Positions 4,844 to 21,686 of a stretch of 64,000 bases of DNA are shown one piece after another. The DNA is from Chloroflexota bacterium. GTDB lineage: Bacteria > Chloroflexota > UBA11872 > VXNJ01. Position 1 is the stretch's first letter. The number at the start of each line of letters is the position of its first letter. The notes below the pieces were generated by a model. That model saw only the letters and a list, made by a program, of their open reading frames with translations, did not search any database and was not told the origin of the DNA. The position numbers and the translations under genes are program-made. The stretch is from assembly GCA_965217845.1 (NCBI GenBank), contig OZ244573.1, forward strand, positions 2,275,663 to 2,339,662. Direction: 5' to 3'.

Positions 4844-5359
4844 TCATTCGCTCGCTTCCGCTCTTTGCTTGAGCTGCTCACGGGCGAGGGCTTCGGCTTC
4901 CGCCGCCAGTTCGTCCAAGTCCATCACCTCGACCGTAATCGACGCTTCCAGCCCGGTCGCGACCCGCACCGGCAAGGTGTAGATGCCGAGTGAGCGGATT
5001 GGATCAAGAACGGTTATCCGGTGGCGATCGATCTCGATGTCGATTTGTTCGGCCAGCGCCTCGGCGACCTGCTGGTTAGTGATCCGGCCGTGGATTCGGC
5101 CTTCGGATCCGACCCGCGCTGGAATGATCACCGATGCCCCCTGCAGCTTGGATGCCAGTTCTTGCGCTTTGGCCATCTCTTGTTGGGCGCGGTGACTGGC
5201 GATCGCGTGTTTTGTGCGCTGGTCGCGTAATACCCCGGACGTGGCGGGACGGGCCAGTTGCTTGGGGATCAGGTGGTTACGTGCGAATCCCGGTGCGACT
5301 TCGGTGATTTCGCCTACCCGACCAAGGTTCGGGACATCGGAGAGAAGGATTACTTTCAC
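4844..5359 (-). CDS. rplI: 50S ribosomal protein L9
   Basis: MKVILLSDVPNLGRVGEITEVAPGFARNHLIPK; C-domain PIRSLGIY. Confidence 0.96.
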   Translation of the reverse strand: MKVILLSDVPNLGRVGEITEVAPGFARNHLIPKQLARPATSGVLRDQRTKHAIASHRAQQEMAKAQELASKLQGASVIIPARVGSEGRIHGRITNQQVAEALAEQIDIEIDRHRITVLDPIRSLGIYTLPVRVATGLEASITVEVMDLDELAAEAEALAREQLKQRAEASE

Positions 5360-6732
5360 AGCGATTGCTTCTGGATGGTGCGCATGAAATCGGCGTTGTC
5401 ACGGGTTTTCTTGAGCTGGTCGAGCATCAGTTCGATTGCGTCCTCGTCACCGACCGCGATCAGCATCCGACGCAGCAGCCAACTCATTCGGGTTTTTTCG
5501 TCGTCGAGCAGCAGTTCGATCCGACGAGTACCAGATTTAATCACATCGACCGATGGGAAAGTGCCGCGCTCAGCCAGGCGTCGATTCAGGATCAACTCCC
5601 AGTTGCCGGTACCCTTGAATTCTTCGTAGATGACCTCGTCCATGCGTGACCCGGTGTCGATCAGGCAGGAGGCCAGAACGGTCAATGAACCGCCGTTTTC
5701 GATATTGCGGCCGGAGCCGAAGAAAGTCTTGGGAGGGACCAGCGCCGCCGGGTCGACGCCGCCGGAGAGGGTCTTGCCGGAAGACGGAACCTGCAGGTTG
5801 TAGGCGCGCGCCAGGCGCGTGATCGAATCCAGGAAAAGCACCACGTTGGCGCCGTTTTCAACCAGTCGGCGGGCGCGCTGCATGGTCAACTCGGCTACCC
5901 GGCAGTGGCTGTCGGGATGCTCGTCGAACGTCGAGCTGATTACCTCGGCCTTGACGGTGCGCTGCCAGTCAGTGACCTCCTCGGGGCGTTCCCCAATCAA
6001 AGCCACCAACAGCTGCAGGTCGTCGTAATTGGTACTAATGGATTTGGCAATCCGCTTCAAGACTTCGGTCTTGCCGGCCTTCGGCGGCGAAACTATCAGG
6101 CCGCGCTGGCCGCGCCCGATGGGCGCCACCAGGTCGATGACGCGGGTCGTCAAATCCACCCGTTCGTGCTCTAGCAGGATCTGATCGGTCGGGAAAATCG
6201 GGACCAAATCGCGGAACCGCGGGCGGCGCGCCGCCAGCTGGGGATCGGCGTTGTTGATCGCCACCACCCGCACCAGTCCGCGGTACTTCTCGTTTTCCTT
6301 GGGGCGTCGCACCTGCCCGGTCACGAAGTCACCGGTGCGCATGCCGGCGCGGCGGATTTGGGCCTGCGAGACGTAGATGTCAGAGACGGTCGGCAACCAG
6401 CGTGAATTGCGGCGCAGCACCCCGAATCCCTCCGAGGTTATCTCGAGAACCCCGTGCTCGAGCGAGCTGGCCAGACTTTCATCGCTCTTGGCGATTATCA
6501 AATCGACCAGGGACCGCTTGTCGATGGGCTCCGGGTCGCCGTTGGGTTCGATGCCAAGGCGATCGGCAAGGACCTGCAACTCGTCGAAATCGCGCGCCAT
6601 AAAGTCGCGGGTCGAATAATTGCTCAGCAACTCCGGAGCGCCGTTGACGCTTTCGATGTCGATGCTGCGCACTGCGGCACCCCAATTGCCGCCCCGCCCT
6701 CGATCACGGTAGGGTCTTCGGCGTCCGCTCAC
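5356..6732 (-). CDS. rho: Transcription termination factor Rho
   Basis: GFGVLR, DIYVSQAQIRR, PIGRGQRGLIVSPPKAGKT, GERPEEVTD, DSITRLARAYN, EEFKGTGN. Confidence 0.98.
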   Translation of the reverse strand: MSGRRRPYRDRGRGGNWGAAVRSIDIESVNGAPELLSNYSTRDFMARDFDELQVLADRLGIEPNGDPEPIDKRSLVDLIIAKSDESLASSLEHGVLEITSEGFGVLRRNSRWLPTVSDIYVSQAQIRRAGMRTGDFVTGQVRRPKENEKYRGLVRVVAINNADPQLAARRPRFRDLVPIFPTDQILLEHERVDLTTRVIDLVAPIGRGQRGLIVSPPKAGKTEVLKRIAKSISTNYDDLQLLVALIGERPEEVTDWQRTVKAEVISSTFDEHPDSHCRVAELTMQRARRLVENGANVVLFLDSITRLARAYNLQVPSSGKTLSGGVDPAALVPPKTFFGSGRNIENGGSLTVLASCLIDTGSRMDEVIYEEFKGTGNWELILNRRLAERGTFPSVDVIKSGTRRIELLLDDEKTRMSWLLRRMLIAVGDEDAIELMLDQLKKTRDNADFMRTIQKQSL

Positions 6733-15618: not shown

Positions 15619-16161
15619 CTACTGGTTCAAAAATTTTATATGGGTTCCTTCAAGCAGGTGCAGTGCCGCGTCGGGGCCAAAGGTGGAGCGCCGCATCAGG
15701 ATCAAGTCGCCACGCAGATCCATCAGCTGCGCGAACTGATCAAACCCCCATTTGCGGTAGAGATCCCGGGCGTAACGGTTGGGTTTATCCACGGCAATCA
15801 CCAGTTCCCGCCGATCCCGCCCGCAGGCCAGCTGCGACGCCCCCAGCACCAACCCAAGCCCGATTCCGCGACGGCGGCAGTCGGGGTGCACGAACAGGGT
15901 GTGGAGGTAGCACTGCGACCGGTCGTCGGAAAACTTTGGATCGCTGCCCCGGAAACGGATCCAGACCTGGCCCACTATCCGTCCATCAAGCGACCCGACC
16001 AGCACCTGCTGGGCATCGCGGTCAATGTCATCAAAGTAACGGCGCAGCAGGAATTGGCCGTCCGGATGGGTGGTCGATTTCCACAATTCGACCAGGTCGT
16101 CCATATCCCCGCGCGCGCCGATCCGGATTTCCGGCAGCGCTGCGGCCGCGGAATCATTCAC
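15619..16161 (-). CDS. GNAT family acetyltransferase
   Basis: LFVHPDCRRRGIG motif A; NRYARDLYRKWGF. Confidence 0.88.
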   Translation of the reverse strand: MNDSAAAALPEIRIGARGDMDDLVELWKSTTHPDGQFLLRRYFDDIDRDAQQVLVGSLDGRIVGQVWIRFRGSDPKFSDDRSQCYLHTLFVHPDCRRRGIGLGLVLGASQLACGRDRRELVIAVDKPNRYARDLYRKWGFDQFAQLMDLRGDLILMRRSTFGPDAALHLLEGTHIKFLNQ

Positions 16162-17015
16162 GGACTGCGGGGCCGCCAGGGTGAAATCCCCTTGGCACCG
16201 CTGACAGTGGCTAGCACTCGAGTCAAAGCCTCTCGTTCCGCGGGCGTGATCGTTTCCTGACTGAAACGGTAATCGGACTTGCGCACAATCTCATCCAGAA
16301 GATCGTGCAATTCCTGCCAGCGCCCAACTTCGGCGGCGGCAACCAGCGCAAGAGCGCGACTGTCGGCGGCGGCGGCGGAAACCAATTGCAGGTGCGGCAG
16401 GCACAGCCCCCGGCCCTGGCGGTAGCGCTCGATCAGCATCTCATCACCGGCGTAATCGGCGAAAGTGGCCGCGTAGCGCAATTCCGCCCGGTACTGCTCG
16501 ACGCAGACCGGACATGGCTGCGCGGGTTTGAACACCCGGCCGCGCCACAATCGCCCACGCCAGTCGCGGAGCAGACGAAATAACCAGCGCGGCAAGCGGC
16601 GGCGCGATTCGGCATCGTACGCGCCCAATTGCCGACCCAGGTTCTTGATGATGTCGGCGTAGGTGATCGCCAGGCCCAGCGCGTCACGCCGGTCCGGCAG
16701 CTGCCAGGCATGGGTGTTGCAAAAACCGTTGGCTTCCCGGACTGTCGCCCGAATATCGACATCAGTTACGTTGTCGGAGCAGTAGACGGTCAGGTAGTGG
16801 TCGGCGATCCGCAGCCCCAACCGGCAGATGGGACAGCCGGCCTCGAGCATGGCTTCATACAACTCGGCGAAGCTGGGTTCGCGGGTGCTAAAGCGGGGGT
16901 CAGACCAATCGATCACCGGTCTCTCGGGCCGGCGCCGGCCCGAGTAATCGGTGAAGTAGGAACGCGCCGCGATGGTCGGTGATCCGCTAGGGTCGGCTAG
17001 GTGGCCGCCGGCCAC
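16158..17015 (-). CDS. Hypothetical protein with duplicated CPxC...CxxH module (DUF6062-like)
   Basis: GCPIC...GFCNTH and PCPVC...LCLPH; C-terminal KSDYRF; start uncertain. Confidence 0.75.
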   Translation of the reverse strand: MAGGHLADPSGSPTIAARSYFTDYSGRRRPERPVIDWSDPRFSTREPSFAELYEAMLEAGCPICRLGLRIADHYLTVYCSDNVTDVDIRATVREANGFCNTHAWQLPDRRDALGLAITYADIIKNLGRQLGAYDAESRRRLPRWLFRLLRDWRGRLWRGRVFKPAQPCPVCVEQYRAELRYAATFADYAGDEMLIERYRQGRGLCLPHLQLVSAAAADSRALALVAAAEVGRWQELHDLLDEIVRKSDYRFSQETITPAEREALTRVLATVSGAKGISPWRPRSP

Positions 17016-17122
17016 AAGCGCGGGGGCGCCTGAATTGTCAATTTCATAGACTGATTTTCGGTGCTCATATTCAAAAACAGCGCGCCGACAGGCCCTGGGC
17101 TAGCCGATCACAGGTTCACGAT

Positions 17123-18685
17123 ATGGACAACGCCGCGCTGACCGACCAGATCGCCGCCGCCAACCTTTCCGAGGAGGCGCGCGCCGTCGCCGGCGAAGTC
17201 GCCCGCGCGCTGGAGCAGACGGATGCGCCCGCCGCCGAAGTGTTCCAGGCGAGGGAATACCTCGCCAATCTACTGGCGCTGCCCTGGCCGGAACCGGATC
17301 CGCCGCCCAATGCCGATCCCGAGACAGTTGTCACAGAGGTCGACATCGGCCAATACGCGCCGCCATTCAACCGCCGCCTGTTAGTCGACTGGATGCTCTC
17401 GGCGCACCGAGCCGAATCACCCGGCGCGGCCCTGCTGTGCGGGCCACCGGGCAGCGGCCGGCGCAGCCTGGCAAAGCGCGTGGCAAAGGCCCTGAACTTG
17501 CCGACGGCCACCATCGACCTGGTAGGAACGGTTGGCGAAAACGATCTGTTCGGCTCCGGATCGTCGCACACTCGCGGCACTATCGGTTCGCTGGCGCGGG
17601 CGTTGGCCGCAAATGGCTCCCGCCGCGGGGTGATCATACTGGCCAATGTTCACTGGGCGGTGGCCAACTGGCCCGATCGCGGGGCGAGGCTGCTTTCGCT
17701 GGTCAACGATTCCGAGGCCAGGCGGAATTGGCGTGATCAATACCTGGATGTCGGCTTCGACCTGCGATCGACGCTCTTGGTGCTCACCGCCGACGGGGGC
17801 AGCGCGTTGCCGCCCGAAATCGTCGACCGGATGCTGCTGGTCGACTGCCCCGGTTACACCCGTAGCGAACGCGCCCGGATCGCGCAGACCCTGCTCTGGG
17901 ACGAAATCAAGTCCCGCTACGCAATTGCCGATCAGGTAGCGCTGGGCGAGGATGCCGCCGAAGTGCTCGTCAGCGAATACACGCCCGAGGCCGGACTGGC
18001 CGCCACTAGCATCGCACTGACCGAAATGGCGCGCAGCGTGGCCGCCGCCCCGGAGGGATCTACGCCCCCGCTGATCGACGCGCCCGGACTGAGCAAGATT
18101 CTGGGCAAACCGCGGCGCTACTACCGGGATGAAGGCGGCTACGCCCGTCCCGGCGCCTGCCGAACGCTGCAGCTTGGCCCCCAGGGCGCCAACGTGCAGT
18201 TGATCGAAGCGGTTCCGGTGCCCGGAGGACGCTACTACCTGACCCCGGAGGGGACATCGGCCCCGGTCAACAAGGCCTGCGACACGGCCTATTACTACGT
18301 ACGCTCGCGGATGACCGAACTCGACATTTCGGCGCGCCAGCTATTCGAGTACGGTTACAAGATCAACCACAACCTGGGCGCCACCGACCAGGACTCCGAG
18401 GCTCTTACGCTGCCGGTGCTGGTGGCACTGATCTCGGCGCTGCGCGATCGCCCGATCGACCCCGAGACCGCGGTCGTTGGCGAGATGAATCAGAACGGGC
18501 TGCTGATGGGTGGATTCGGGTTGTCGCATCGGTTGTTGGCCGCCCAGCGCGCCGGAATCCGCCGGTTGCTGCTCCCGCGCGCCAACGCGCCCGATATCGA
18601 AGAGCTGCCGCCGGGACTGGAAAACGACCTGACCCTGATCATGGTCTCCGATGCCGATCAGGCGATCAGGGTGGCCCTGAGTTGA
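17123..18685 (+). CDS. Lon-like AAA+/S16 protein lacking N-domain and catalytic residues (putative pseudoenzyme)
   Basis: Colinear with LonA from the three-helix bundle on: LPW, GPPGSGRRS, DQYLDVGFDL, DRM, GYT, YTPEAG, LLAAQRAGI, DIEELP. Confidence 0.88.
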   Translation: MDNAALTDQIAAANLSEEARAVAGEVARALEQTDAPAAEVFQAREYLANLLALPWPEPDPPPNADPETVVTEVDIGQYAPPFNRRLLVDWMLSAHRAESPGAALLCGPPGSGRRSLAKRVAKALNLPTATIDLVGTVGENDLFGSGSSHTRGTIGSLARALAANGSRRGVIILANVHWAVANWPDRGARLLSLVNDSEARRNWRDQYLDVGFDLRSTLLVLTADGGSALPPEIVDRMLLVDCPGYTRSERARIAQTLLWDEIKSRYAIADQVALGEDAAEVLVSEYTPEAGLAATSIALTEMARSVAAAPEGSTPPLIDAPGLSKILGKPRRYYRDEGGYARPGACRTLQLGPQGANVQLIEAVPVPGGRYYLTPEGTSAPVNKACDTAYYYVRSRMTELDISARQLFEYGYKINHNLGATDQDSEALTLPVLVALISALRDRPIDPETAVVGEMNQNGLLMGGFGLSHRLLAAQRAGIRRLLLPRANAPDIEELPPGLENDLTLIMVSDADQAIRVALS

Positions 18686-18715
18686 ACCCTTCCGCCGGGG
18701 TCCGCTGAGGCGCAG

Positions 18716-19774
18716 ATGTTCGGCGTCGGCATAACCGAATTCCTCTTCATCCTCGCGATCGCAATGATCGTGCTCGGCCCCGACCGTCTGCCGGAGGCGA
18801 TGGGAAGACTGGGAAGAATGGTGCGCCAACTGCGGGTATGGGCCCACGAATTCCGGGCCGAATTCGATGAGGAGATCCAGCTCCTGCGCGGTGAAGTCGA
18901 AGCACTGCAGCGCGAGGCCGAGCTAACCCGCCAGGAACTGCAGGAGATCCATGCCGAGGTTGCGGCGACGGTGGGTGAGGCCCAGGAGGACTTAGACAGC
19001 GCCGCCCAGGATATTGCCACCGAGTTAGGCGCGGCCACCGATGCCGCCGATTCCCAGCTCGGCGCCGCCGCCAGGACGTTGACCGATCCGACCCCGACGG
19101 CCCCATCTGCGACCGCGCCGAAACCGGTCGCGGCCCAGGCCTTGCCGTTCGCTGCCAACCAACCCGCGGAGGCCATGGCGAGCGCCATCACGCAGGCGTT
19201 TGCCCCCTCGAATGGCGGACCGGCCGCATCGCCGGCCGCAGTCCCGGCGGCGGCGCGCTGGCAAAGTCCACCCGAACCTGAGCCACCTGCCTTGCCAGAA
19301 GGCGGCGTGACCATGACGCGGTTCGCGCCCGACCACGGTCAATATGCGGCGCTGCTGCGCGCCGCCGCCGGGGCCGGCGCCAAGTCGCTGGGCGCCAGCC
19401 GCGAAGCCCTCCGCAACCAGGGTCGCCGCGACGCGGGCGAACTGGACGGATACGCCGGCAAGGGGCCGATGGCGGCGGCGTTGCTCTGGGCGGGCAGCAT
19501 CCAGGCGCATGTCGACAGGGACGCGATCCAGGTCGAACGCGAAGACGATGCCGACCCGGTGCAGGTGACCGTATCCCTGACCCGGGACCCACACGGTCTG
19601 GAACGGCCCATCGATGCTCCAGCCGCCCGCCTGGCACGCTATTACGACCGGGCCTTTTTCGCCGGCTTAGGAGTGGCCATGGAGGATGGATCGCTGTTGG
19701 CCGAAGGCGCCGAGCGAACCCGGTTCGTGTTGACCGATCTAGCCGCCAGCGAAGCCGACGACGCCCCCGAGTAG
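18716..19774 (+). CDS. tatB: TatB-like Tat translocase subunit with long linker and extra C-terminal domain
   Basis: MFGVGITEFLFILAIAMIVLGPDRLPEAMGRLGRMVRQLR; coiled coil; Pro/Ala linker; about 150 aa C-terminal domain. Confidence 0.8.
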   Translation: MFGVGITEFLFILAIAMIVLGPDRLPEAMGRLGRMVRQLRVWAHEFRAEFDEEIQLLRGEVEALQREAELTRQELQEIHAEVAATVGEAQEDLDSAAQDIATELGAATDAADSQLGAAARTLTDPTPTAPSATAPKPVAAQALPFAANQPAEAMASAITQAFAPSNGGPAASPAAVPAAARWQSPPEPEPPALPEGGVTMTRFAPDHGQYAALLRAAAGAGAKSLGASREALRNQGRRDAGELDGYAGKGPMAAALLWAGSIQAHVDRDAIQVEREDDADPVQVTVSLTRDPHGLERPIDAPAARLARYYDRAFFAGLGVAMEDGSLLAEGAERTRFVLTDLAASEADDAPE

Positions 19775-19779
19775 CTGCC

Positions 19780-20817
19780 ATGCAAACCAGGAGCAAGACC
19801 TCGTGGGTAACCTCGCACCAGTTGCAGAACCTTGTCGGAGAACTTCTCGCCGGCGCCGGCGTGGACCCGGTTTCCGCCGCCGCCGCGGCGGCGGCATTGG
19901 TCGATTCGGACCTGCGCGGCCACCATAGTCACGGCGCGTTCTTGGCGCTGACCTACCGCAATGAAATTGCCGCCGGCACGCTCGACCCGCGCGCCCAGGC
20001 GCAGATCGCGAGCCGGCGCGGTGCCACGGCCCGAATCGACGGCGGCGGCGGATTGGGGCAATCGGCGGCACGCTTGGCCATGCGGACCGCAATCGAATTG
20101 GCCCGCACCCATGGCATCGGTGCGGTAAGCGTTACCCGCAGTGGTCATTTCGGGGCCGGCGCCTACTGGGTCGAGATGGCCGCCGAAGCCGGCTTGATCG
20201 GTTTCGCCACGTCGACCGAACCGGCCGGCTGGCTCACCGCCCCGGGGGCGATCGAACCAGCTTTCGCCAATCTGCCCTGGGCATGGGCCTTCCCCGGACG
20301 CAACAGCGAGCATCTGGTGCTGGACATGGCCACCGGCGCTATAGCCGACGGCAAACTCAGGCTCGCCCGGTTGGGAATAGGGCAGCTCCCGCCGGGGTCG
20401 ACCGTAGATGGGCAAGGGAAGCCCGCCACCGACCCCGATCTGGCCCGGATGATTCTGCCCCTGGCCGGCGCCAAGGGCCTGGCGTTGACGCTGGCCTGCG
20501 ATGCCCTGGCCGGAATCCTCGGCGGCCTGGGAGGCACCACCACGCGCGGCCGCCGCCCGATCCATGGCAGCGGATCCACGGGCCAGTTTCATTTGGCCAT
20601 ACACGTGGACGCCTTTGGCGATCCGGACGAATTTGCCACCAACCTGGCCGAACAACTGGACGCATTGCAAGCGACCCGCACCGCCCCCGGGGCCGCGCCG
20701 GTCCGCACCCCGGGATCACGCGGGCGAGAATGGCGGCGTCGCCAGTTACGCGAGGGCATCGCTCTGCCGGAGCCGATATGGCGGCAGTTGCAGGAAGCTG
20801 CCGGAACGCGATCATGA
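19780..20817 (+). CDS. Ldh_2 family (malate/L-lactate/ureidoglycolate-type) oxidoreductase
   Basis: DLRGHHSHG, IDGGGGLGQ, SGHFGA, LDMAT, GAKG. Confidence 0.88.
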   Translation: MQTRSKTSWVTSHQLQNLVGELLAGAGVDPVSAAAAAAALVDSDLRGHHSHGAFLALTYRNEIAAGTLDPRAQAQIASRRGATARIDGGGGLGQSAARLAMRTAIELARTHGIGAVSVTRSGHFGAGAYWVEMAAEAGLIGFATSTEPAGWLTAPGAIEPAFANLPWAWAFPGRNSEHLVLDMATGAIADGKLRLARLGIGQLPPGSTVDGQGKPATDPDLARMILPLAGAKGLALTLACDALAGILGGLGGTTTRGRRPIHGSGSTGQFHLAIHVDAFGDPDEFATNLAEQLDALQATRTAPGAAPVRTPGSRGREWRRRQLREGIALPEPIWRQLQEAAGTRS

Positions 20818-21686
20818 TCCAGCTGCGGGACCGCTGCCACGCGGCCGAGGAACTAATCCTGAGTGGCGATACCCGCGCGATCAGCGCCATCGCCGATCTG
20901 CTTGAGCCGGGCTACCTGGGCAGGGTTGCGGCCCGCCTGGCGCAACCCGATACTCGCCTGCTGCTGGCGACCGGATTCCTCGTTATCGGGTCCGGACGCG
21001 CCGAAACCGACGGCCCGCTGGGGGCGCGCGCAATCTGTGACGCGGTCGCACTGGCCGGGGGTCAGGTGTGCGTGGTCTGTGACGAACCGACCGTCGATGT
21101 GGTCGGGGCCGCGATCGGCCAATCGGCGCAAATTGCGGTCATGCCGATCGGCGATGACGAGCAGGCGCGGATCTGGTCGAACGCCCAGCGGACGCGGTTT
21201 CGCGCCAACGCGGTCGGTTTCATCGAGCGCTGCGGCCGCGACGCCACCGGTTGCTTCCACTCCATGCACGGGAAAGATATCAGTGCCGTTACCGCTCGCA
21301 CCGATCACCTCATCTCGCCAGCGGTTACAAGTTTTTCCATCGGCGACGGGGGCAACGAAGCCGGTTTCGGCCCATTTGCGCAAGCGCTGCGCGAGCGGGG
21401 CGTAATGCCTTGGCCGTCGGCCTCGGTCGTGGACGAACTGATCATCGCTTCGGTTTCGAATTGGGGTGGATACGCGCTCGCGGCCGCAATCGCCTGGACC
21501 GCCGGCCTGTCTCCGGGGGCCGTGCTGCCGGATGAGGACCGGCTCGCCGGACGCGTCCGAGAACTGCTAAACGCCGGCGCGGTCGACGGAATGTCGGGGT
21601 TGAGCGAGGCCAAAGTGGACGGGCGCGAGCTCGAATCCGAATTCGCCATCCTGGGCGAACTGCGTCGTATCGGAGGTCAGGCTTGA
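20814..21686 (+). CDS. D-glutamate cyclase-like protein (DUF4392)
   Basis: TGF..ETDGPLGA, IERCGR, IGDGGNEAG, SVSNWGGY; ATGA overlap with upstream gene. Confidence 0.85.
   Translation: MIQLRDRCHAAEELILSGDTRAISAIADLLEPGYLGRVAARLAQPDTRLLLATGFLVIGSGRAETDGPLGARAICDAVALAGGQVCVVCDEPTVDVVGAAIGQSAQIAVMPIGDDEQARIWSNAQRTRFRANAVGFIERCGRDATGCFHSMHGKDISAVTARTDHLISPAVTSFSIGDGGNEAGFGPFAQALRERGVMPWPSASVVDELIIASVSNWGGYALAAAIAWTAGLSPGAVLPDEDRLAGRVRELLNAGAVDGMSGLSEAKVDGRELESEFAILGELRRIGGQA

Follow-up and report, generated by a model that had tools for sequence, protein, structure and literature searches.

A probable non-catalytic Lon paralogue maintained by purifying selection in Chloroflexota

Introduction

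Lon is among the best-studied AAA+ proteases. Pseudoenzymes are common, and AAA+ protease relatives that are dead in one activity are already known, both on the ATPase side (LonC) and on the protease side (FtsHi). In the accessible parts of two reports, LonC of Meiothermus is an ATPase-dead third Lon with chaperone activity (PMC3391209, PMC13069640), and the plastid FtsHi pseudo-proteases appear, in the accessible part of their source, as AAA+ protease paralogues that were kept after losing the proteolytic site (PMC8197885). Here we analyse a Lon paralogue of a Chloroflexota bacterium that has lost the residues of both activities. It is encoded at positions 17123..18685 (plus strand) of a stretch of 64,000 nucleotides, which we call the window (assembly GCA_965217845.1, contig OZ244573.1, positions 2,275,663 to 2,339,662 of the forward strand), and we refer to its 520-residue product as the dead Lon.

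A preliminary description of this DNA, made from its letters, had taken the protein for a selected pseudoenzyme, had put weight on an arginine finger that it retains, and had offered two roles for it, one as a regulatory subunit of mixed Lon rings and one as a scaffold or chaperone working with a TatB fusion just downstream. Judged by alignment with LonA, the residues for ATP hydrolysis, substrate threading and proteolysis are shown to be absent from a Lon-fold protein that is kept by selection, and we consider it highly probable that the dead Lon is a selected non-catalytic protein. In our searches of the full-text literature, supplements excluded, no LonA paralogue with both modules dead was described.

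Results

A LonA-colinear protein without the N-domain

The gene has an ATG start and 520 codons before its stop, with zero internal stops. Its product aligns with the LonA model TIGR00763 from position 257 to position 793 of 795 (E 1e-52), in agreement with the preliminary reading of an uninterrupted open reading frame (ORF) that is colinear with LonA minus the N-domain; the product scores 179.7 bits, or 176.3 bits when the genome is searched, which is far below the curated cut-off of 608.05. A Pfam scan of the protein returns Lon_C (3.4e-25) and weak AAA matches. The LON N-domain is absent, with no PF02190 match in that scan and a TIGR00763 alignment that begins at model position 257, and because the upstream DNA is occupied by a divergent gene of the DUF6062 family (16158..17015, minus strand; identified by Pfam and by comparison of loci) no N-domain is hidden nearby. 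Alignment and structure model together place an N-terminal helical region at residues 1-100 (17123..17422), equivalent to about positions 257-350 of LonA, and Pfam places the Lon protease-like domain at residues 316-520 (18068..18682).

The predicted fold is that of Lon throughout. AlphaFold2, run on a family alignment of 17 rows, gives a model with a mean predicted local distance difference test score (pLDDT) of 86.7 and a predicted template modelling score (pTM) of 0.85, and in a Foldseek search of the PDB it is matched over its full length by LonA and LONP1 chains (probability 1.00, template modelling score 0.8-0.85). From this model we are confident that the dead Lon keeps the AAA+, lid and S16-domain fold.

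The residues of both activities are replaced

We read the substitutions from HMMER alignments to solved LonA chains (best 7p6u, E 7e-54) and checked them against 65 canonical LonA sequences. On the ATPase side, the Walker A motif GPPGVGKTS of LonA has become GPPGSGRRS (residues 107-115, 17441..17467), a P-loop remnant in which R113 and R114 stand in place of the Lys and the Thr. The Walker B motif LLDEID has become ILANVH, within VIILANVH (residues 170-177, 17630..17653), where A174-N175 replaces Asp-Glu and the acidic residues are gone. The sensor-1 Asn is D224, the sensor-2 motif EAGVR reads EAGLA (A293), and in the former pore loop 1 (GSGSSHTRGT, residues 144-153, 17552..17581) the Tyr is H149, which leaves no aromatic residue there. 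On the protease side, the catalytic Ser is A427, in the same column as the Ala of the S678A mutant LonA chain, and the GPSAG context around it is gone (former Ser site DQDSEALTL, residues 422-430, 18386..18412); the catalytic Lys is R470 (former Lys site LSHRLLA, residues 467-473, 18521..18541). These two columns are 100% Ser and 100% Lys among the 65 LonA sequences. What the protein does retain is R236, the DRM arginine at the Arg-finger position (VDRM, residues 234-237, 17822..17833). It shares the LonA residue at 61 of 150 positions whose conservation in LonA is 85% or higher.

The replacements that the preliminary description had claimed for Walker A, Walker B, both sensors, the Ser and the Lys are thus all confirmed, as is the retention of the DRM arginine. 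For the pore loop, the loss of the Tyr stands and the proposed pairing of TYIG with HTRG does not, as HMMER and MAFFT both pair TYIG with SHTR, an offset of one residue.

The gene is kept by purifying selection

Searching with P0001 as the query at E 1e-60 or better, we find orthologues in 17 of the 18 other genomes of the same GTDB family and in 0 of the 79 genomes of the class's other five families. The reading frame is intact, with no internal stops, in 17 of the 18 related genomes; the sole family genome without an orthologue (G053) is 80% complete and is also without matches to both neighbouring genes.

We quantify constraint through the ratio of nonsynonymous to synonymous substitution rates (dN/dS), calculated for pairs of sequences by the Nei-Gojobori method. 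The window gene gives 0.119 against its relative at locus L009, 0.112 against L010 and 0.114 against L011, at dS of 0.72-0.88, and these three give 0.07-0.11 among themselves; pairs with L012 and L019, which are near saturation, give 0.17-0.27. By region, the ratio is 0.065-0.089 in the protease domain, which is the most constrained part of the gene, 0.10-0.135 in the AAA+ core, 0.13-0.15 in the lid and 0.16-0.22 in the N-terminal helices. When several genes are measured in one genome pair (G052), we obtain 0.089 for LonA1, 0.105 for LonA2, 0.112 for the dead Lon, 0.184 for the TatB-like gene and 0.066 for the aminotransferase gene. By this measure the dead Lon is under the same constraint as the two active full-length LonA genes found alongside it. 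The preliminary description had made its case for a selected pseudoenzyme depend on the existence of orthologues under purifying selection; these exist, and the ratio stays at 0.07-0.12 in unsaturated pairs. The dead Lon is therefore a homologue of an enzyme, with catalytic residues missing and purifying selection acting on it, and by these features it counts as a pseudoenzyme.

A small family of N-less Lons in one order

A word-indexed search of 5.8 billion proteins returned nine clusters of similar length (520-540 residues) at 84-37% identity to the dead Lon, the remaining matches being full-length LonA. Relatives are encoded at 11 loci in species-representative genomes, all of them metagenome-assembled genomes of Chloroflexota. 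In a search with the lon model, 56 of the 57 genomes of the order have LonA matches over the curated cut-off, and among the matches listed the order genomes have two full-length LonA genes and a third match without the N-domain (hereafter N-less). The window's own genome likewise has two full-length LonA genes, LonA1 (C1:1959087-1961360) and LonA2 (C1:1839396-1841675). In a sister family the third Lon is an ORF of 519-631 residues at 10 of the 10 loci fetched.

To see how far the family reaches, we take a profile made from both groups. In a scan of 1.84 billion representative proteins, the full-length single-module N-less clusters that it ranks above canonical LonA number only about seven, along with two fragments. 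Across the phylum we scanned 301 sampled genomes, 23 of them from the order; the profile scores 553-703 bits in 22 of these 23 and 441 bits, on a shorter match, in the remaining one (G034), and outside the order no match exceeds 463 bits. The sample includes two unpublished genomes, G301 and G132, which bear on absence outside the order only as two negatives. Among the genomes searched, this small N-less Lon family is restricted to one order of Chloroflexota. In a quick maximum-likelihood tree of 62 rows (IQ-TREE) the N-less proteins form one side of a branch with a support of 100 in the Shimodaira-Hasegawa-like approximate likelihood ratio test (SH-aLRT), apart from the LonA genes of the window's own genome, and the dead Lon belongs with them by its separate clade, its missing N-domain, its missing pore-loop aromatic and its signature residues. 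A search of the ESM Atlas gave Lon clusters only, some of them short N-less Lons from other phyla and from giant viruses, so the N-less state is not unusual by itself. The practical limit of the family as study material is that it is small and known from metagenome-assembled genomes only.

Two other kinds of Lon came up in these searches. Long high-scoring matches of 900-1800 residues were considered as members of the family and rejected, because the 12 that we inspected are Lons with two or three AAA+ modules whose scores were summed. Metagenomic proteins of this kind (P0117, P0118, P0120, P0122, P0125-P0128, P0130 and P0138; 889-1829 residues) carry two or three AAA+ modules in tandem, with one Lon_C domain at the C-terminus, unlike both LonA and the N-less family. 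Separately, the second full-length LonA of the window's own genome (L002, C1:1839396-1841675) has PKSGASAGM at its Ser site, not PKDGPSAG, and KAKVLAVGR at its Lys site; the dyad is intact and its context unusual.

Catalytic residues are lost piecemeal while other residues are fixed

The relatives allow us to ask which of the losses are shared. The pore-loop aromatic is missing in every N-less member compared, and in 10 sister-family members and four of five further database representatives the change is a deletion of five residues. The Walker B Glu is missing in nearly all N-less members, the motif being ED, EE, EG or AG among sister-family members and either AN or RN in every member of the window's own GTDB family. 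Beyond this the groups diverge. Among the 10 sister-family members taken from genome loci, the Walker A Lys is kept in nine, the Ser in seven and the catalytic Lys in all 10. In the window's own family the Thr after the Walker A Lys is always replaced by Arg; L013-L018 retain the Walker A Lys itself, in place of which the window's genus has Arg; the Ser column holds S in L014, L015, L012 and L019, T in L009-L011, V in L013 and A in L016-L018 and the window protein; and L014-L018 retain the catalytic Lys, where L013 and the genus have Arg. With the states read by eye onto the 62-row tree, the Ser was replaced at least five times, or seven times if no regain is allowed. The window protein shows the most complete loss of catalytic residues among all sequences compared. 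Going by these alignment columns, catalytic residues were lost piecemeal and repeatedly across the N-less family.

A second set of positions is fixed. W183, S403-A404-R405, E409, R441-D442, D446-P447-E448, R481, R486 and Q513 are invariant among N-less Lons and rare or absent in LonA, with S403, A404, R405 and E409 invariant or nearly so across the whole family, and R200 is invariant where LonA has Asn in 100% of sequences. The P-loop glycine frame (G107, P108, G110 and G112) is invariant in both N-less groups. Across the 13 closest sequences (the own GTDB family and P0121), about 92% agree at R151 and likewise at G152, and H469 is invariant. The stretch VRSRMTELDISARQLFEYGY of the protease-like domain (residues 393-412, 18299..18358), which holds S403, A404, R405 and E409, is a family signature. 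Because the Ser column is replaced in several lineages while these other columns are invariant, the selected function appears to be independent of the lost activities.

Discussion

A binding ring as a tentative mechanism

How might a Lon without chemistry be useful? The dead Lon consists, by alignment and model, of a LonA-derived AAA+ module, a lid and a protease-like domain, and our proposal is that it would act alone as a Lon-type ring that binds instead of processing, as a holdase or a scaffold. The P-loop has kept its glycine frame, GP.G.G[KR]R, with Arg at the position of the Thr that binds Mg, and it may still accommodate a nucleotide or phosphate that serves structure or sensing; the kept frame, the Arg for Thr and the lack of Walker B acids together suggest that such binding would be Mg-independent. 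The invariant charged residues of the protease-like domain, from S403 to Q513 in the list above, may form the working surface. The family seems to have lost threading and hydrolysis first and the Ser repeatedly, so the function would need the fold, and probably the ring, not the chemistry, and the chaperone activity of LonC implies that a Lon ring can work as a holdase. We lean towards this mechanism tentatively, at slightly less than even confidence.

Several points weigh against it. A Walker A Lys-to-Arg change combined with a lost Mg ligand may abolish nucleotide binding altogether. The binding-ring mechanism is built on conservation patterns and analogy, and the analogue is an imperfect one, as LonC comes from another branch of Lon and still has its protease dyad. 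Finally, 30 base pairs separate the dead Lon gene from the TatB-like gene that follows it in each of the genus's six sequences, an arrangement that suits a partner-dependent role equally well.

A more specific history can be sketched, which we put forward as speculation and rate as rather unlikely in its full form. A LonA duplicate would have turned stepwise into a non-catalytic ring, losing the N-domain and the pore aromatic first, then the Walker B Glu, then the Ser, the Lys and the Walker A Lys in separate lineages, and gaining a new invariant charged surface. If this is true, the family would be a tractable system for how an AAA+ protease becomes a pseudoenzyme, and if in addition the surface is a binding site specific for one partner, be it a LonA ring, the TatB-like protein or a signal such as a nucleotide or polyphosphate, the dead Lon would be the first Lon-derived pure adaptor or sensor.

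Mixed rings with LonA

Of the other explanations, the one that survives best is that the dead Lon is a regulatory subunit of mixed rings with full-length LonA, lending its Arg finger to an active neighbour and so tuning ATPase or protease output or the choice of substrate. Potential partners are at hand in the two full-length LonA genes of its own genome and in the near-universal LonA of the order, the Lon fold is preserved in the AlphaFold and Foldseek results, and R236 is kept in the dead Lon and in six of the seven clusters of its genus (H in P0004). Rings of active and dead protomers are known for FtsH and FtsHi, according to the accessible part of the source (PMC8197885). The Arg finger, which the preliminary description had stressed, does not hold up as a shared feature once the whole N-less family is compared: the column holds R, K, Q, H, E, A or S, with Q in L013, P0008 and P0009, K in L014-L017, E in P0121, and A, S or Q in three of the 10 sister-family members. 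The low share of conserved LonA positions that the dead Lon retains (61 of 150) also argues against a shared ring, and so does its missing N-domain. The N-domain of LonA helps to organise hexamers. Full-text literature searches found no description of Lon hetero-oligomers, and we know of none. We judge mixed rings to be a possible but unlikely role.

The TatB-like neighbour

Less likely still, and in our view doubtful, is that the dead Lon is a Tat-linked scaffold or chaperone that works with the TatB-like protein, for example by holding Tat substrates or the TatB tail at the membrane. The TatB-like gene (18716..19774, plus strand, 352 residues) does begin 30 base pairs (bp) downstream of the dead Lon gene, as had been noted. 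The N-terminus of its product is of the TatA/B type (TIGR01410 at 6.7e-15, just under the cut-off, and PF02416, which passes its own); a coiled stretch, a linker rich in Ala and Pro and a conserved C-terminal domain come after it. The genome has only two TatA/B-family genes, of which this is one, and one tatC elsewhere. What speaks for a link is that DUF6062, dead Lon and TatB-like gene stand side by side at 11 of 11 loci in the own GTDB family, down to 37% identity, with a Lon-to-TatB-like spacer of 30-32 bp in the genus and 77-91 bp elsewhere. No terminator-like site separates the two genes, in a scan of 16900-19900 that found no consensus promoter or terminator and is uninformative for this phylum. 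A complex prediction of the dead Lon with residues 22-352 of the TatB-like protein scored 0.00, which weighs neither for nor against binding.

Comparison with the rest of the class tells against a specific tie. The TatB-like gene is matched in 91 of the 98 genomes of the class and the dead Lon is found in only one family. In six of the six sister-family loci examined (L035-L040), DUF6062 and the TatB-like gene flank a gene for an isocitrate/isopropylmalate dehydrogenase (Iso_dh; PF00180, E about 1e-88 to 1e-91), which lies about 90 bp upstream of the TatB-like gene, a spacing similar to that of the Lon gene. DUF6062 is therefore a conserved neighbour of the TatB-like gene with or without a Lon gene between, and one gene has been replaced by another at the conserved slot. 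The N-less Lon of the sister family sits elsewhere, adjoining divergent rhodanese (about 120 residues) and ThiF-family (about 279 residues) genes upstream in 10 of 10 loci (L041-L050), with enolase, DUF3179 and an SMP-30-like gene downstream; the neighbours at these 10 loci gave no functional lead. Because the slot holds Iso_dh in the sister family and the N-less Lon lies elsewhere there, the Lon/TatB-like adjacency looks like one rearrangement in the ancestor of a single family that was then inherited. The tatB linkage that was to be looked for among orthologues thus holds in all own-family loci and not in the sister family, and a special tie to TatB is not supported. The adjacency permits co-transcription and is weak evidence for shared function.

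The locus offers some further observations. In the C-terminal domain of the TatB-like protein (window 19300-19774), a CPYGL...C...C pattern occurs in the sister family (L035, L036, L038 and L039) and in L014, L016 and L018, and its cysteines are replaced by D, A and R/T in L013 and the window's genus. This is the same clade in which the dead Lon has its catalytic Lys changed to Arg, so the two changes count as a single phylogenetic event and not as a correlation. The same domain has a sub-threshold match to MetOD1 (E 0.0084, 16.6 bits against a cut-off of 23.8), a hint from sequence similarity of a small-molecule or metal-binding output domain. The window's neighbouring genes are DUF6062, the TatB-like gene, dehydrogenases and an aminotransferase. 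The ORF 19780-20817 (Ldh_2) shares about 535 bp with the ORF 20283-21686, which has a GLUCM-like C-terminal domain; Pfam matches the latter only from residue 202 on, so its true start probably lies well downstream of 20283. The DUF6062 homologue at L009 (about 5041-5890; G055:C18:96923-97757) is in two pieces in different frames, which may be a frameshift or an assembly error of the metagenome-assembled genome.

Residual activity and decay

Could the protein still be an enzyme through non-canonical residues, with another nucleophile or an Arg-based site? Some relatives point that way, as L014, L015, P0121 and seven of the 10 sister-family members keep both Ser and Lys, and L012 and L019 keep the Ser opposite an Arg. 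In the dead Lon, however, both dyad columns and the GPSAG context are altered and the Walker B motif is without an acidic residue. The Ser of QDSEA, S425, which the preliminary description had named as the residue through which activity might persist, was considered as a rescue nucleophile and rejected for lack of conservation: it is Ser in only five of the 10 cluster representatives, and Ala or Val in the others. We consider residual activity very improbable. That the gene is heading for loss and is still open by chance is the least credible reading of all, for although its lon-model score is the lowest of the order's N-less Lons (176 bits against at least 214 for the others, among the matches listed), the selection data already contradict decay, with a dN/dS of about 0.1 that equals that of LonA, frames that stay open in the related genomes, and long invariant blocks.

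Comparison with known systems

The dead Lon is most like LonA, with which it shares a colinear helical region, AAA+ alpha/beta domain, lid and S16 protease-like domain and which provides its best sequence and fold matches; it differs from LonA in the missing N-domain, in a score below 608 bits, and in having neither functional Walker A and B motifs nor a Ser-Lys dyad.

LonC of Meiothermus taiwanensis, an ATP-independent, Lon-like protease, is a described case of a degenerate Lon. It too is a third Lon homologue beside two LonA genes and without the LonA N-domain (accessible part of PMC3391209), its Walker, sensor and Arg-finger motifs are degenerate, it lacks ATPase activity and it functions as a chaperone (accessible parts of PMC3391209 and PMC13069640). 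The same partial source gives LonC 719 residues, specific insertions, an active Ser-Lys dyad and a comparison with LonB (PMC3391209), whereas the dead Lon has 520 residues, aligns colinearly with LonA, has no large insertions and no longer carries the dyad, and it is accordingly not a LonC. Among the 48 solved sequences that it matched at E 0.001 or better there is no chain with the LonC name.

Weak matches of the protease-like domain point to a third group, RadA/Sms, ComM/ChlI and BrxL (sms 4.8e-8, BrxL 8.1e-13, PF13541 0.0011, PADLOC BrxL 1.3e-14). The Lon-protease-like domains of these proteins are non-proteolytic ring modules. There they are joined to other ATPase modules, whereas the dead Lon retains the whole LonA body among housekeeping genes. 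BrxL has a bacteriophage exclusion (BREX) neighbourhood; the dead Lon matches it by the C-terminal 180 residues only and has no BREX neighbours. A defence-system reading was considered and rejected, as the PADLOC matches were confined to the generic protease domain for BrxL and to short P-loop stretches for IetA.

The FtsHi pseudo-proteases, finally, are membrane-bound relatives of metalloproteases in a eukaryotic organelle, and FtsHi proteins keep a working ATPase, whereas the dead Lon has lost the residues of both activities. Where LonC and FtsHi each illustrate the loss of one activity, the relatives of the dead Lon keep different subsets of the catalytic residues, and they form a comparative set for the roles that a Lon ring can have without chemistry and for the order in which its activities are lost.

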